Assembly (NCBI GenBank): GCA_028693335.1
Contig: JAQUVR010000042.1
Span: 1 to 6,041, forward strand
DNA length: 6,041 nucleotides
Reading direction: 5' to 3'
DNA from: Candidatus Iainarchaeum sp.
Lineage (GTDB): Archaea > Iainarchaeota > Iainarchaeia > Iainarchaeales > CSSED10-239
Of the stretch, positions 90 to 6,039 are shown piece after piece; within the stretch, counting starts at the first letter, position 1; the number at the start of each line of letters is the position of its first letter. Made by a program: the position numbers and the translations under genes. The notes beneath the pieces are model-generated. The model was not told the DNA's origin. It worked only from the letters and a program-made list of their open reading frames with translations, and ran no database searches.

Positions 90-1091
90 ATGACTAAAGA
101 AATAAATAAAGAATTAATAACAGATCTTAAACATAAAAAATATGGCATTTTTGGAAAACATTCTGCTGTTGAAATTTGTACGTGGAATAAAAAAGCATTA
201 AGAGGAGAAGGCGTTTGCTATAAAGAACACTTCTATAATGTTAATTGCCATAGATGTGCACAAATAACCCCAACTGTTTTGTGGTGTCATCAAAACTGTA
301 CTTTTTGTTGGAGACCAGCACAATATATGGATGTTGCAAAATTAGATTTAGACTTTATTGATAATCCAAAAGAAATTATTGATGGATTATTTATTGAAAG
401 AAAAAAATTATTAAGTGGATTTGGTGGTTTTAAAAAAGTTGATAAAAAAAAACTAAAAGAAGCAGAGGTCCCAAGTCACGTAGCAATCTCATTATCTGGA
501 GAACCAACACTTTATCCTAAATTAGATGAAATGATTACTTATCTAAATAGTTTAAAACAAATTAAAACAATTTTTTTAGTCACAAATGGACAAGAACCAA
601 AAATGCTTAAAAAGCTTCAAGAAAAAAAAGCATTACCAACTCAAATTTATTTGTCAATAGATGCTCCAACAGAAGAACTGTATCTTAAAATTAATAGACC
701 AAAAATTAAAGATGGTTGGAAAAATCTACAAAAAACTGTTTCTTTGTTTAAAGATATAAAAACAAGAAGAGTAATTAGATTTACTTTAATAAAAGGATTA
801 AATGATGATTTGACATTATTAAAAAAATATGTTAGCCTATTTGAAAAAACAGATGCTGATTTTTTAGAAATTAAATCATATATGTTCTTAGGATATTCTA
901 GAAAAACACTTGCTTTAGAAAATATGCCATCACATCAAGATTGCTTAGATTTTGCAAAATTAGTTGAAAATAATTCTAAAAAGTTTAAAATAGTTGATGA
1001 ATGTAAGCCATCAAGAATTGTTTTATTAAAAAATAAAAATAGTAAATATAAAAATTTTATTTTAACTGATAAAGAAAAAGAAAGAATGTAA
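90..1091 (+). CDS. taw1: S-adenosyl-L-methionine-dependent tRNA 4-demethylwyosine (imG-14) synthase, Taw1/TYW1 family radical SAM enzyme
   Basis: Radical-SAM motif CHQNCTFCWRP (C66-x3-C70-x2-C73). It is preceded by three Cys at 13-residue steps (C30, C43, C56), the auxiliary-cluster pattern I recall for archaeal Taw1. Lys45 in CYK sits where I recall the pyruvate Schiff-base lysine. Downstream ISLSGEPTLYP and FLVTNG are typical of this family. The ~330 aa length with no flavodoxin domain is the archaeal form. Confidence 0.9.
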   Translation: MTKEINKELITDLKHKKYGIFGKHSAVEICTWNKKALRGEGVCYKEHFYNVNCHRCAQITPTVLWCHQNCTFCWRPAQYMDVAKLDLDFIDNPKEIIDGLFIERKKLLSGFGGFKKVDKKKLKEAEVPSHVAISLSGEPTLYPKLDEMITYLNSLKQIKTIFLVTNGQEPKMLKKLQEKKALPTQIYLSIDAPTEELYLKINRPKIKDGWKNLQKTVSLFKDIKTRRVIRFTLIKGLNDDLTLLKKYVSLFEKTDADFLEIKSYMFLGYSRKTLALENMPSHQDCLDFAKLVENNSKKFKIVDECKPSRIVLLKNKNSKYKNFILTDKEKERM

Positions 1092-1961
1092 ATGAATGAA
1101 GAACTATTAAAAATTATAGAAATATTAAAAACAGAAAAAACAATTTGCCTATTAGCACCAAGTTTTCCAGTAGATTTTTCTTTTCCAGAAGTAATTTTGG
1201 ATCTAAGAGAAATTGGTTTTACTAAAATTGTTGAATTAACTTATGCTGCAAAACTTATAAATTATAAATATATAGAAATACTAAAAAACAACCCCGAAAA
1301 ACAATACATTTGTCCTAATTGTCCAACAATTGTTAAATATATAGAAAATAAGTATCCTGAGTTAAAAGAAAATATAATAGACGTTGCATCCCCAATGGTG
1401 ATTATGGCTAGATTTGTAAAAAGAGAATTTGGAGAGGATTATAAAACTATTTTTGTAGGCCCTTGTTTTGCAAAAAAACAAGAAGCAAAAGAAAATTCTG
1501 ATTGTGTGGATTATGCTATAACTTATAAAGAATTTTGTGAGATCTATAACTATTTAGAAGAAAATAATTCTCTTAAAAAAATAGAAGAAAGTCAAGAAAA
1601 TAAAGAAATAGATAAATTCTATAATGATGTAACTAAAATATATCCATTAAGTGGTGGTGTTGCAGAGAGTATGTTAAACAAACAAATAGTATCAAAAGAA
1701 GAAATAATTGTTTGTGACGGGCCAAAAAACATAGATGTGTCTATAAAAGATTTTAAAGAGTTTAAAACATTTAGATTTTTAGATATTCTTTTTTGTGAAG
1801 GTGGCTGTCTTGGTGGTCCAGGGATAATTAATAAAGATCCAATAGATGAAAAAATAAAAAAAATATTAGAATATAAAGATAGATCTAGATATTATCAACC
1901 AGATGAAAAATATGGCAAATTTATTCATGCATTTGCATTGGATCTGAAAAGAAAAAAATAA
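1092..1961 (+). CDS. Minimal [FeFe]-hydrogenase H-domain-like protein (Fe_hyd_lg_C-type), with no accessory ferredoxin domains
   Basis: Manual motif alignment to HydA: ICPNCPT matches L1 TSCCPxW, FVGPCFAKKQEA matches L2 MPCxxKKxE, and ILFCEGGCLGGPG matches L3 ExMxCxGGCxxGGGQP. Additional matches are LAPSFPV (APAVR region), LSGGVAESML (GGVMEAA) and VDYAITYKEF (VDxVLTTxE). The cluster-ligand candidates are C77, C125, C235 and C239. The ATG at 1092 directly abuts the taw1 stop at 1089-1091. Confidence 0.75.
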   Translation: MNEELLKIIEILKTEKTICLLAPSFPVDFSFPEVILDLREIGFTKIVELTYAAKLINYKYIEILKNNPEKQYICPNCPTIVKYIENKYPELKENIIDVASPMVIMARFVKREFGEDYKTIFVGPCFAKKQEAKENSDCVDYAITYKEFCEIYNYLEENNSLKKIEESQENKEIDKFYNDVTKIYPLSGGVAESMLNKQIVSKEEIIVCDGPKNIDVSIKDFKEFKTFRFLDILFCEGGCLGGPGIINKDPIDEKIKKILEYKDRSRYYQPDEKYGKFIHAFALDLKRKK

Positions 1962-2275
1962 AATTCTGGTTTTAAAGACGCAAGTCTTTTATAAAATAAT
2001 TTTTGGTCAATTGTAAAAAATTTTGTTGGATTTATTGCACTTTTATATTCTAAAAAACCAGATTCAAGATCTTTTTCTTTTATTTCTACACAATTATTAA
2101 AATTAGGTGCGTGTGTAGTTATATAGCAACAAATAATATCTTGATAAAAAGTGTTGTGTTGTAAATTAGAAATCACTAGAACAGGTCTTTTCTTTGACCT
2201 AGAAAGATCAGTAAATGGAAAATACGCAAGATATATTTCTCTTTGTTTAATACTTATTCCATCTTTTATCATCAT
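1925..2275 (-). CDS. mazF: Type II toxin, MazF/PemK-family endoribonuclease-like
   Basis: REIYLAYFPFTDLSRSKKRPVLVISN aligns with MazF GDLIWVDFDPTKGSEQAGHRPAVVLS. ICCYITTH aligns with the CVPCTTQ strand. The C-terminal FFTIDQKLFYKRLASLKPEF matches the MazF xDQxxxxDxxRlxxxxGxLxxE pattern. It is 116 aa, sits directly downstream of and overlaps an AbrB-type antitoxin gene, and stops at TGA. Confidence 0.8.
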   Translation of the reverse strand: MMIKDGISIKQREIYLAYFPFTDLSRSKKRPVLVISNLQHNTFYQDIICCYITTHAPNFNNCVEIKEKDLESGFLEYKSAINPTKFFTIDQKLFYKRLASLKPEFYFFLFRSNANA

Positions 2276-2489
2276 TATTATTCCAACTTTTTAATGATTT
2301 ATCAAGCAGTTTATAATATTCCTTATCTTCTTTTGTTAAAAAAACATCTTCTGCTTTTTGAAGTATAATTTTTTTTTTATCAACAACTAAAATTAAAGAC
2401 GCCCCTTTTTTTAGATTAAGTTGATTTCTAATACTTATTGGAATACTAATTTGCCCTTTATCACTTATAGTTGCGGTCTTAATTAACAT
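2247..2489 (-). CDS. mazE: Type II antitoxin, AbrB/SpoVT (MazE-like) DNA-binding domain protein
   Basis: MLIKTATISDKGQISIPISIRNQLNLKKGASLILV is a typical SpoVT-AbrB swapped-hairpin signature (xxxKGQIxIPxxIRxxLxLxxGDxL). I place the start at the internal ATG 2489-2487, not the ORF-track ATG at 2537. An AGGT Shine-Dalgarno-like element lies 6 nt upstream of 2489. The candidate TATA boxes lie between the two ATGs or just upstream of 2537, and the extra 16 codons are translated tandem repeats. The longer form 2247..2537 cannot be excluded. Confidence 0.75.
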   Translation of the reverse strand: MLIKTATISDKGQISIPISIRNQLNLKKGASLILVVDKKKIILQKAEDVFLTKEDKEYYKLLDKSLKSWNNNDDKRWNKY

Positions 2490-2490
2490 A

Positions 2491-2517
2491 TTCTTACCTT
2501 TCTTACTTTTCTTACTA
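2491..2517 (-). repeat. Three tandem 9-bp repeats (plus strand TTCTTACCT / TTCTTACTT / TTCTTACTA; minus strand WAGTAAGAA x3) directly upstream of the antitoxin start; candidate TA operator
   Basis: Read directly: TCTTAC recurs at 2492-2497, 2501-2506 and 2510-2515 with a strict 9-nt period. The array lies between the candidate TATA elements and the ATG at 2489. Confidence 0.6.
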
Positions 2518-2518
2518 A

Positions 2519-2549
2519 TATATAAATTAAGAAACAACTATTTTATAAA
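2519..2549 (-). promoter_or_regulatory. Candidate promoter region of the mazEF-like operon, with two TATA-like elements
   Basis: On the minus strand there is TTTATATA (plus 2519-2526) and the palindromic TTTATAAA (plus 2542-2549). Either would put the TSS about 26 nt downstream, near 2496 or 2519. Both positions are downstream of the ATG at 2537, which supports the 2489 start. Specificity is low in AT-rich DNA. Confidence 0.3.
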
Positions 2550-3891: not shown

Positions 3892-5664
3892 ATGGCATTA
3901 GAATATGAAAACATAAAATGGCTAAAAGAAGCAGCATATGCAGACTCAAGAATAATTGGAAGAAAAGCAGCAAGATTAGCGCAATTAACTTCTGCCGGAA
4001 TAACTATTCCAAGAGGTTTTGTTATAACATCAACTGAGTATTTTAATTTTTTACAAGTTAATAATATTAAACAAAAAATATCTCAAATACTAAAAGCAAT
4101 TGATTATAATAATTCAGAAGATATTTTAAAAAAATCAAAAGAAATTCAAGAATTGATCTATAAAGGAAAACTAAATCAACAAATGGAAACTGAACTATAT
4201 AAATATTATTTAAAAATTGGCGAAACAGGAGTTGGTTGGTTAAACTCACAAGCAGATGATTTTGTTGCTGTTAGGTGTTCTGTTGTATGTGATGATGGAG
4301 AAGTATGCGACACAAAATTTATTGAAGAAGAAGGCGGATCTTTAAATGTCAAAGGAAGAGTTAATCTAGTAAAAGCAATTAAAGACTCTTGGGCAACATT
4401 ATTTTCTCCAGACGTAATAGAATATGCAAATAAAAAAAACATTAATATTGAAAGATTAGGAATAAGTGTTTTAATTCAAAAAATGATTGTAGCAAAATAT
4501 TCTGGAATAACAATAACCTCAAAAAGTCAAGAAGATCCAAATACAGTTATAATTGAAGCAGTATATGGTTTTGGTGCAGCACATGTAATAAAAGAAATTA
4601 CTCCTGATCATTATGAAACACAAAAAAAGCCATACACAACATTACACAAAAGCGTTTCAAAACAAGAGTGGGAATTAAAAAGAGTTAAAGGAATAACTAC
4701 AAAGGTTCCTGTAATTGAAAGTGAACAAGAAAAACAAAAAATAAATACACATTTATTAAAAGATCTAACAAACACAGCAATAAAAGTTGAAGAATTCTTT
4801 GGAACTCCACAAATGGTTGAGTGGGCAATGGATAAAGCAGATTTCTATTTAATTTCTTCTGAAGCTATTAATCCAAATGTTGCAGAAAAAACTAAAAAAA
4901 ATCTAAAACAACAAAAAATTCATTCTTTAAAAAATCAATTATTAGTTAAAGGTATTGGTGCTGTTCCCGGTGTTGTTAATGGAGATGTTATTATAGTAAA
5001 TAATTATAATGATTTAGAAAAAGTAACTGAAGAAAGCATAATAGTAACAGCAATGACAGATCAAGAAATGATGGAAGCAATAAAGAGAGCAAAAGGTGTT
5101 GTCACTAGTGGTGGTGGAACAATTTGTCATGCAGCTGTTATTTGTAAAAATCTAAATAAGCCTTGTGTTGTTGGCGCAAGGTTTGCAATAGAACAACTAT
5201 TAGAAAATGAAACAATTATGATAAACGGAACTAGTGGAGAAGTTTATAGTGTATCTAAATTAGATCTCGTTGATGTTAATGATGATGGATATCCAGAACC
5301 AGAAGAACTGGAAGAATTAATAGAAGGAAGAATAAAAAAAGAAAGTGCTCATTGGGAAGTTGTAAAAAGCAAAAAACCAAAACAAAAATCAATAAAAGAA
5401 CCAGATACATTTTTAGCACCTTCTCAAAGACAAAAAGAAACACAAGAAGTTTTAAAAAAAGAATATATTGATTCTAGTGGAAATATTAATATTAAAGATT
5501 TGGCAAAAATAGAAATTACTAAAATTAAACAAATAGTAATTCCAATAGATCAATTATTTTCTGCACTTGAAAGAGAAAAATTAAGAGAAGAATTTCCTGG
5601 TTCTGTTTGTATGCTTACAAAAGAAAAAATTAAAAAGATATTAAAAGATATTAAAGAAATGTAA
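3892..5664 (+). CDS. PEP-synthase/pyruvate-phosphate-dikinase-like phosphotransferase with an ATP-grasp (PPDK_N) domain and a phosphohistidine swivel domain, no PEP/pyruvate TIM-barrel domain, and a novel charged C-terminal tail
   Basis: N-terminal IIGRKAARLAQLTSAGITIPRGFVIT matches the PpsA vGGKnAsLGEm..G..VP.GF region. LIQKMIVAKYSGITIT, IIEAVYGFGAAHVIKEITPDHY and MVEWAMDK match the PPDK_N core (VQxMVxxxxSGVxF; ieAvwGLGEavVsGxvtPD; DIEWA). The swivel domain reads GIGAVPGVVNGDV...IIVTAMTDQEMMEAIKRAKGVVTSGGGTICHAAVICKNLNKPCVVG, with the catalytic-type His at codon 413 (5128-5130). The last ~137 aa (5251-5661) resemble no dikinase domain I know. Confidence 0.8.
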   Translation: MALEYENIKWLKEAAYADSRIIGRKAARLAQLTSAGITIPRGFVITSTEYFNFLQVNNIKQKISQILKAIDYNNSEDILKKSKEIQELIYKGKLNQQMETELYKYYLKIGETGVGWLNSQADDFVAVRCSVVCDDGEVCDTKFIEEEGGSLNVKGRVNLVKAIKDSWATLFSPDVIEYANKKNINIERLGISVLIQKMIVAKYSGITITSKSQEDPNTVIIEAVYGFGAAHVIKEITPDHYETQKKPYTTLHKSVSKQEWELKRVKGITTKVPVIESEQEKQKINTHLLKDLTNTAIKVEEFFGTPQMVEWAMDKADFYLISSEAINPNVAEKTKKNLKQQKIHSLKNQLLVKGIGAVPGVVNGDVIIVNNYNDLEKVTEESIIVTAMTDQEMMEAIKRAKGVVTSGGGTICHAAVICKNLNKPCVVGARFAIEQLLENETIMINGTSGEVYSVSKLDLVDVNDDGYPEPEELEELIEGRIKKESAHWEVVKSKKPKQKSIKEPDTFLAPSQRQKETQEVLKKEYIDSSGNINIKDLAKIEITKIKQIVIPIDQLFSALEREKLREEFPGSVCMLTKEKIKKILKDIKEM

Positions 5665-5670
5665 GAGGAA

Positions 5671-6039
5671 ATGAAAATGGCACCAAAAGGAAAAACAACT
5701 AAACCACAAACCAAAAAAATTGCAGAATCTAAATTAAATAATCTTTCTGAGGTTTTAAAAAATACCAGAACATCAAAAGCACAAAAAATAAAAAAATTAG
5801 AAAGCTATAGTGCAATGTATGAAAAAGCAATCAAAAGAAAAAAAGAAGTTTACAAAAAACTGTTTGAACTTGCAAAAAAAGATCCAAAAAAAGTTGTTGG
5901 ACTAGAGGAATTTGATCTAAATCTTTTTTTAGATAGTAATAAAAATTTCTCAGATTTTTTTAGAAGATTAAGATCAGAAATAAACACGCTTGAAAAACAA
6001 AAAAGAACAATACAAGGCGCAATTGCTGAAATAAAATAA
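5671..6039 (+). CDS. Hypothetical small Lys-rich, probably coiled-coil protein, co-transcribed with the upstream dikinase-like gene
   Basis: Complete 122-aa ORF on the same strand, 6 nt after the upstream stop. It is highly basic and helical-looking (KIKKLESYSAMYEKAIKRKKEVYKKLFELAKK; LRSEINTLEKQKRTIQGAIAEIK). GAGGA at 5665-5669 is only 1 nt from the ATG at 5671 but 7 nt from the in-frame ATG at 5677, so the real start may be 5677 (MAPKGK...). I recognise no family. Confidence 0.55.
   Translation: MKMAPKGKTTKPQTKKIAESKLNNLSEVLKNTRTSKAQKIKKLESYSAMYEKAIKRKKEVYKKLFELAKKDPKKVVGLEEFDLNLFLDSNKNFSDFFRRLRSEINTLEKQKRTIQGAIAEIK

Follow-up and report, generated by a model that had tools for sequence, protein, structure and literature searches.

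A group E [FeFe]-hydrogenase homologue beside a radical S-adenosylmethionine enzyme gene in an Iainarchaeota contig

Is a hydrogenase domain of 289 residues that stands alone on an archaeal genome fragment a hydrogen enzyme in its own right, or a derivative put to some other use? This question is raised by a stretch of DNA from Candidatus Iainarchaeum sp. (contig JAQUVR010000042.1; hereinafter, the window), which comprises the complete contig of 6,041 bp, with a G+C content of about 26%, and in which a first-pass annotation, made from the letters alone, singled out the following gene, denoted hyd here:

positions 1092 to 1961, forward strand: hyd, encoding a stand-alone H-domain protein (group E homologue); open reading frame (ORF) with an ATG start, 289 aa

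The product was described as an ultraminimal [FeFe]-hydrogenase-like protein, and the choice was left between a class of such enzymes in DPANN archaea, described in recent literature, and a non-catalytic, Nar1-like or sensory derivative. As far as the sequence goes, hyd is a homologue of the group E [FeFe] hydrogenases in a metagenome-assembled genome (MAG) from the Iainarchaeota, a lineage of DPANN archaea. Publications already describe the class and its biochemistry, and the protein itself has been annotated by NCBI, which holds an identical sequence (MDD3244981.1, '[Fe-Fe] hydrogenase large subunit C-terminal domain-containing protein') from a Ca. Iainarchaeum MAG. What the present analysis adds to the earlier observation is the family-wide loss of the canonical proton pathway, a subclade marked by the motif C-x-N-C-P, members of the family in bacteria of the candidate phyla radiation (CPR) that use genetic code 25, and the radical S-adenosylmethionine (SAM) enzymes encoded next to hyd.

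The assignment to the superfamily is carried by profile, sequence and structure comparisons alike. The sole Pfam match of the protein is Fe_hyd_lg_C (PF02906; residues 17-243, E 3.3e-40; 138.7 bits, cutoff 22.1), which covers positions 3-245 of the 245 in the profile, and a phmmer search against the PDB recovers CpI and other [FeFe] hydrogenases with a best E of 1.2e-13. Of the NCBIfam models for [FeFe] hydrogenases, the protein matches the C-terminal half, with scores under the full-length cutoffs, as is to be expected from its truncated architecture. An AlphaFold2 model built from 32 family sequences (mean predicted local distance difference test score, pLDDT, 92.1; predicted template modelling score, pTM, 0.90) points to the same fold: the best 50 PDB matches of this model are all H-domains of [FeFe] hydrogenases (CbA5H, CpI, TmHydA, DdH), with a probability of 1.00 and query-normalized template modelling (TM) scores of 0.72-0.77, and no other fold appears among them. 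To our knowledge, there is no solved structure for any group E member. Hundreds of relatives of about 290 aa are recovered by homology search. The archaeal context that the first-pass annotation assumed is borne out by two other genes in the window, those for TYW1 (TIGR03972) and for RadA, which scores 476 bits to the archaeal RadA equivalog.

Within the superfamily, the window protein falls into a class that was defined in 2024. The group E 'ultraminimal' [FeFe] hydrogenases, as described by Greening et al., Cell 2024, consist of the H-domain only, have a mean length of 286 aa, occur in the Iainarchaeota, Micrarchaeota and Nanoarchaeota (DPANN), and are the sister of the sensory group C (PMC11216029). 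One of them, Fm of Ca. Forterrea multitransposorum, has been purified with 4.2 Fe, or a single [4Fe-4S] cluster, per protein; its H-cluster was assembled with synthetic [2Fe]adt, H-cluster states were seen by Fourier-transform infrared spectroscopy, cyclic voltammetry revealed bidirectional catalysis with a bias to H+ reduction, and lysates with Fm produced H2 (PMC11216029). We identified the Fm sequence indirectly, via the complete Forterrea genome: the 286-aa protein P0043 is the exact product of that genome (CP045477.1, 839,632 bp) and, given that one hydrogenase per genome has been reported (PMC11216029), it is Fm itself. With 56% identity and 76% similarity to Fm over 288 aa (E 5e-114), the window protein belongs to the class that the first-pass annotation pointed to, which is group E. 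The two proteins come from the same phylum, are of nearly the same length (286 versus 289 aa) and consist of the H-domain only; they have identical C-x-N-C-P, PCxxKxxE and D-x-L-F-C-x-G-G-C motifs and lie in a common genomic block. They differ in 44% of the residues, and three cysteines that are extra in the window protein (Cys138, Cys149 and Cys208) are unconserved. In our trees, which are rough neighbor-joining reconstructions with 200 bootstraps, the window protein, Fm and the homologues from code-25 bacteria form one clade (196/200); the subclade to which the window protein itself belongs (200/200) is apart from the Forterrea-type subclade, the mean identity between the two being about 51%.

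The anatomy of the putative active site was assessed by alignment with CpI and by conservation among 79 non-redundant full-length homologues from 85 loci, translated with code 25 where needed. The segments concerned are:

positions 1155 to 1163, forward strand: Ala22-Pro23-Ser24, putative [2Fe] pocket residues (CpI A230-P231-S232), invariant or 99% conserved, n=79
positions 1311 to 1325, forward strand: L1-type motif C74-P75-N76-C77-P78, with Cys77 as the predicted [4Fe-4S] ligand; from the CpI alignment
positions 1389 to 1397, forward strand: Ser100-Pro101-Met102 (CpI S323-P324-Q325), invariant, n=79; aligned to CpI
positions 1458 to 1484, forward strand: L2 motif G123-P-C125-F-A-K128-K-Q-E131 (CpI M353-P-C355-x-x-K358-x-x-E361); from the CpI alignment
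positions 1782 to 1823, forward strand: L3 motif D231-I-L233-F-C235-E-G-G-C239-L-G-G-P-G (CpI E495-x-M497-x-C499-x-x-G-C503); from the CpI alignment

The equivalence of Ala22-Pro23-Ser24 with its CpI counterpart is drawn from motif similarity, this segment being located just upstream of the HMMER-aligned block. The protein contains nine cysteines, at positions 19, 74, 77, 125, 138, 149, 208, 235 and 239. The four that had been proposed as cluster ligands, C77, C125, C235 and C239, are indeed spaced by 48, 110 and 4 residues on recount, and the spacings of roughly 55, 144 and 4 given for the clostridial enzyme agree with CpI C300, C355, C499 and C503 in the HMMER alignment. Realignment keeps all four in register with CpI (N76-C77 on C299-C300, C125 on C355, K128 on K358, E131 on E361, L233 on M497, and C235/C239 on C499/C503). 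The same alignment supports the two substitutions that were noticed at the outset, Asn76 in place of the proton-relay Cys299 and Leu233 in place of Met497, the Met before the first L3 Cys. Neither CxxCxxCxxxCP nor CxxCxxC occurs anywhere in the protein, in accord with the claim that a ferredoxin motif is missing.

All 79 sequences share the four ligand cysteines, A22-P23, S100-P101-M102, P124-C125-x-x-K128-x-x-E131, P185, D231 and G237. Two family types can be told apart by the L1 region. In the clade that joins the Iainarchaeota with the code-25 bacteria, and includes both the window protein and Fm, the motif is C-x-N-C-P (N76 in 54/54 and C74 in 53/54 sequences, with C77 in 79/79 across the whole set), G123 is invariant and L233 is 96% conserved; the other group E members, from Nanoarchaeota/Woesearchaeota and other Patescibacteria, have V or P at position 76 and S, A or T at position 74, that is, [S/A/T]-[S/T]-[V/P]-C-P. 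Asn76 and Leu233 are, then, conserved family traits, and Asn76, in particular, appears to be a clade signature rather than a lesion. The non-ligand positions equivalent to the [2Fe] pocket are at least 90% conserved in 14 of 14 cases within the clade, against 76 of the 289 positions overall (hypergeometric p ~3e-9), and in 10 of 14 across all 79 sequences (p ~5e-6). On this pattern of sequence conservation, one can argue for selection on a diiron cofactor pocket, beyond a mere [4Fe-4S] site.

Common to the prototypical group A enzymes (CpI of C. pasteurianum and HydA1 of C. reinhardtii) and the window protein are the predicted H-domain fold (TM 0.72-0.77), the four cluster cysteines, the Lys358/Glu361 pair, and the Ala-Pro-Ser and Ser-Pro motifs; HydA1, like the window protein, has no F-domain. 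The identity to group A is about 20%, and the window protein is about 170 residues shorter than HydA1 because its loops are condensed. Relative to CpI, M353 is replaced by G, M497 by L, Q325 by M and F417 by Y.

We consider it probable that the product of hyd is an H-cluster-binding group E hydrogenase that works like Fm. In such an enzyme, Cys77, Cys125, Cys235 and Cys239 would bind the [4Fe-4S] part of the H-cluster, with Cys239 also bridging to [2Fe], and the [2Fe] pocket would be lined by Ala22-Pro23-Ser24, Leu49, Ala53, Asn76, Pro101-Met102, Gly123, Lys128, Tyr184-Pro185, Val190 and Leu233. Without a relay of F-clusters, the exposed [4Fe-4S]H would have to exchange electrons directly with a soluble one-electron carrier, most simply ferredoxin, as algal HydA1 does. 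Protons would need a path to the active site that is short or otherwise unlike the canonical wire, and in which the Asn76/Cys74 pair or bound water may take part; Cys74, essentially invariant in the clade and undiscussed in the first-pass annotation, is conceivably an element of this alternative route. By analogy with Fm, the holo-enzyme would interconvert H+ and H2 with a bias to H2 evolution, and ferredoxin-coupled fermentative H2 production has been proposed for group E (PMC11216029). Family membership, fold, conserved ligands and pocket positions, and the lack of accessory clusters are borne out by the present data; activity, redox partner, proton route and origin of the [2Fe] moiety are features that we infer for the window protein, and the organism is probably devoid of HydEFG.

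A number of facts weigh against this interpretation. No gene for HydE, HydF or HydG is present in the window, as the first-pass annotation had stated, the only radical-SAM gene there being that of TYW1, and none is found in the 17-kb context of a 98%-identical locus (L001) either, which bears on the [2Fe] loading of the native protein. The closed Fm genome and most archaeal genomes likewise lack HydEFG, and it took artificial maturation, with a synthetic cofactor, to make Fm active (PMC11216029). Neither a ferredoxin nor a 2-oxoacid:ferredoxin oxidoreductase gene lies nearby, and the conserved neighbors are radical-SAM and housekeeping genes. In the CpI alignment, C299 is replaced by N76, S319 by I96, E282 by K59 and R286 by I63, and E279 falls in a deletion; the canonical L1 'TSCCP' and the Glu/Ser/Glu/Arg proton pathway are not seen in the window protein, and across the family C299 is N (or V/P), E282 is K, E or H, R286 is I or L, and S319 is I. 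Sensory hydrogenases, which are poor catalysts, show similar losses in the proton pathway, and the nearest multidomain relatives of the window protein are signaling proteins. The list of [2Fe] pocket positions, moreover, follows the CpI structure rather than the coordinates of the model. Loss of the canonical proton pathway is, for its part, a known property of groups C-E and compatible with membership in the superfamily.

The group E family turned out to extend beyond archaea. In 36 of the 85 loci, the hyd gene contains 2-11 in-frame TGA codons, nearly all of which fall on Gly residues of the window protein, the G-G of C-x-G-G-C among them, and which therefore indicate genetic code 25, that of the Gracilibacteria and Absconditabacteria-SR1 (L015-L017, L021-L030, L032-L034, L036-L041, L043-L046, L048-L050, L052-L056, L058 and L061; hyd at ~10001-10870 in most). 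The complete SR1 genome CP006913.1 is in this set. In several database proteins, translation with the wrong table has put W at invariant Gly positions (for example, P0033, P0044, P0051, P0063, P0089, P0092, P0094, P0110 and P0116). With about 51% identity, the code-25 proteins are as close to the window subclade as the Forterrea subclade is. Group E has been treated as archaeal, with the Patescibacteria/CPR unmentioned (PMC11216029), and our literature search found no other report of group E hydrogenases in Gracilibacteria or Absconditabacteria; given the CPR members, being encoded in DPANN genomes may not be a defining feature of the group. The idea, suggested by a first neighbor-joining tree, that the CPR sequences nest inside the Iainarchaeota was dropped, the order of the three subclades being unsupported by bootstrap (Iainarchaeota monophyly, 52/200; window clade with code-25 sequences, 36/200).

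The genes around hyd add a further dimension to the problem. Directly upstream is

positions 90 to 1091, forward strand: TYW1 (4-demethylwyosine synthase, radical SAM); TIGR03972, 359 bits, cutoff 318

and the TAA stop of TYW1 abuts the ATG of hyd with a zero-nucleotide gap, on the same strand and in the same frame, so the two genes are probably co-transcribed. No terminator-like site was detected between them or around hyd, and no structured RNA around hyd was found with Rfam; sigma-70-like promoter matches were at or below the shuffled expectation, this model being not applicable to archaea. TYW1 abuts hyd on its upstream side, co-directionally, in 23/23 Iainarchaeota-type loci, and is also its direct upstream neighbor in L087-L089, with an unannotated 192-aa ORF in between in L085 and L086; P0030, P0107 and P0114, which we tried as independent lineages with this linkage, were rejected because all belong to the same Iainarchaeota synteny block. 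In most of the code-25 loci (for example, L016, L022 and L054), a methylthiotransferase of the MiaB/RimO family, closest to RimO (TIGR00089, 292 bits, above cutoff), adjoins hyd co-directionally, and it remains next to hyd in either gene order, before or after it; a HemW-like radical-SAM gene follows hyd directly in 21 of these loci. The CxxxCxxC motif occurs in 22/42 immediate neighbors of hyd in Iainarchaeota and in 39/63 in the code-25 bacteria, as against 0/193 and 7/266, respectively, of the other flanking ORFs.

This arrangement hints that the mini-hydrogenase may serve radical-SAM enzymes. The enzyme could then be the same as outlined above and yet act as a dedicated redox partner rather than mainly as a vent for fermentative H2: either ambient H2 or the exposed low-potential [4Fe-4S] cluster would supply one electron to the [4Fe-4S]2+ cluster of the client, TYW1 in Iainarchaeota, and the MiaB/RimO-type methylthiotransferase and HemW-like protein in code-25 CPR bacteria. 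A low-potential electron source is required by every radical-SAM enzyme, including archaeal TYW1, which is without the flavodoxin domain that is fused to the eukaryotic one; for only two systems has the cognate reductant been identified (PMC8941971). The linkage of hyd to unrelated radical-SAM genes in two domains, the persistence of TYW1 upstream while insertions gather downstream of hyd, and the lack of ferredoxin or 2-oxoacid:ferredoxin oxidoreductase genes nearby all fit such a role, in which H2 or a bare [4Fe-4S] cluster would replace flavodoxin/ferredoxin systems that tiny genomes may lack. However, the radical-SAM neighborhood amounts to only two independent events, one per domain, and both lie within conserved housekeeping blocks (with ArgRS, thioredoxin-like and RadA genes in one, and UvrB and NusA genes in the other), so that the adjacency may be a frozen gene order; group E loci outside the C-x-N-C-P clade have no radical-SAM neighbor, with tRNase Z-like, LSm and aminoacyl-tRNA synthetase genes there instead; no fusion protein is among the homologues listed; the functional category was picked after inspection of the data; and Fm is biased to H2 production, not oxidation (PMC11216029). 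Radical SAM and TYW1 are unmentioned in the group E paper (PMC11216029), and our literature search returned nothing specific on group E follow-ups or on hydrogenase-like reductants of radical-SAM enzymes. On balance, we hold it unlikely that hyd in the window plays this part, and hold equally unlikely the broader proposition that the C-x-N-C-P subclade is a minimal dedicated radical-SAM reductant or Fe-S partner, a module exchanged between DPANN and CPR. A variant in which the adjacent radical-SAM enzymes act in HydEFG-independent maturation is more remote.

Alternatively, the organism may be unable to make the [2Fe] moiety, and the protein may be a [4Fe-4S]-only carrier or scaffold, non-catalytic in vivo and comparable to 'apo-HydA' or to Nar1, which would deliver or repair Fe-S clusters for the neighboring enzymes. 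There is a precedent in eukaryotic Nar1, an H-domain recruited to Fe-S protein biogenesis, and the auxiliary clusters of TYW1 and of the methylthiotransferases have to be assembled and repaired. Like Nar1/NARFL, the window protein would be an H-domain derivative in a cell without HydEFG, possibly linked to the maturation of Fe-S enzymes; the absence of the maturases from the window, from the Fm genome and from most archaea speaks for this alternative, and so do the NifU-SufD-SufB-SufC genes found after hyd in the Forterrea subclade. Eukaryotic Nar1 has, however, an additional N-terminal cluster with four cysteines, and in the window protein the only Cys before residue 74, and N-terminal to the H-domain core, is Cys19. 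The positions that would serve only to hold [2Fe] (the Lys358 equivalent, the Ala-Pro-Ser and Ser-Pro motifs, and the pocket hydrophobics) do not vary between the two domains and are conserved as in true hydrogenases; the SUF adjacency is confined to one subclade, in about 6 of 23 loci; and Fm is an active catalyst once it has bound [2Fe]adt, which it does readily (PMC11216029). We therefore find this alternative quite improbable, and the Nar1-like option of the first-pass annotation is less likely than its option of an ultraminimal DPANN hydrogenase.

That hyd encodes an H2 sensor standing on its own, either an offshoot or an ancestor of the sensory groups C/D, and signaling via a separate partner, is a notion that comes from its wider relatives. 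A profile search of 1.84 billion representatives produced 3,312 matches with a step in score between stand-alone proteins of ~250-300 aa (>200 bits) and longer proteins (~150 bits), which combine Fer4, the H-domain and PF04060 with PAS, HisKA/HATPase, methyl-accepting chemotaxis protein (MCP) or sigma-54 activator domains; this sensory group C/D architecture agrees with the position of group E as the sister to group C (PMC11216029). The sensory enzymes, such as HydS of T. maritima, likewise have neither a relay Cys nor a canonical proton wire. Unlike them, the window protein has no N-terminal Fer4, no C-terminal PF04060 and no PAS, kinase, MCP or sigma-54 output, nor is there a conserved regulator gene beside hyd, and tiny genomes would be expected to have few regulated H2-dependent pathways. 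HydS, furthermore, prefers H2 oxidation, whereas Fm is biased to H2 evolution (PMC11216029). A sensory function, also entertained in the first-pass annotation, is accordingly less likely than that of an ultraminimal DPANN hydrogenase, and we regard it as very improbable.

With an Fm-like hydrogenase as the preferred interpretation, the window gene is one more example of the 2024 class and, taken alone, changes little; it adds a well-separated Iainarchaeota subclade to group E. For the class as a whole, two questions come to the fore, namely, how protons are delivered without the universally studied Cys relay, where the Asn76/Cys74 pair is an obvious target for mutagenesis, and how the H-cluster is built without HydEFG. 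The radical-SAM neighbors in two domains, together with the code-25 CPR members, suggest a different, testable physiological role, and the occurrence of one clade in both archaea and CPR bacteria suggests that ultra-small symbionts have transferred it between domains. With a mass of about 33 kDa and a single cluster site, these proteins would be the smallest known H2 catalysts, of interest to enzyme engineers.

The gene order ArgRS (arginyl-tRNA synthetase)-thioredoxin-like-TYW1-hyd...RadA-PEP (phosphoenolpyruvate)-synthase-like is common to the window and Forterrea, and in Iainarchaeota insertions (MazEF, SUF and other ORFs) accumulate 3' of hyd. The remaining annotated features of the window are:

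positions 1925-2275 and 2247-2537, reverse strand: MazF (PemK_toxin) / MazE (AbrB-type antitoxin) pair, between hyd and radA
positions 3892-5664, forward strand: PEP-synthase-like protein, 590 aa, with PPDK_N ATP-grasp and mobile phospho-His domains

The 3' end of mazF overlaps that of hyd by 37 bp in convergent orientation. The MazEF pair is present in L001, L006 and L009 and absent from L005, L007, L008, L010 and L012, and it looks like a mobile insertion in a variable slot, which in the Forterrea subclade holds NifU-SufDBC in place of the toxin-antitoxin pair. There, convergent NifU_N-SufD-SufB-SufC genes follow hyd (L003/L004/L014, 10865-14383, reverse strand; also L018-L020 and L013); adjacency to SUF/NifU as a general feature of hyd was rejected, being restricted to that subclade and not found in the subclade of the window.

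Two database entries among the relatives call for comment. For P0025, a stand-alone group E homologue of 292 aa, the JGI name reads 'two-component system, NtrC family, sensor kinase', presumably by annotation transfer from sensory group C/D fusions. P0129 (4,122 aa, 14 matched stretches) was set aside as unrelated: it consists of seven tandem units of Fe_hyd_lg_C plus small subunit, followed by flavodoxin and FAD-binding domains, and probably represents group-A-type hydrogenase genes of a eukaryote, arrayed in tandem, that were merged into one gene model.

In some Iainarchaeota loci, small ORFs of 178-192 aa without a Pfam match (L085, 5420-5998 and 6890-7426, forward strand; L089, 2504-3070, forward strand) separate TYW1 from hyd or follow hyd immediately; they are co-directional with these genes, overlap their neighbors by a few bases and could be additional members of the operon. 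The PEP-synthase-like protein has no C-terminal PEP/pyruvate-binding domain, matching model positions 4-463 of 798 and ending in a Lys/Glu-rich tail, and the same two-domain architecture is encoded beside radA across the Iainarchaeota loci (544-723 aa). Near the contig end, at positions 5671-6039 on the forward strand, the window contains a Lys-rich ORF of 122 aa with no significant family match, and the 98%-identical locus L001 has a 120-aa ORF in its place.

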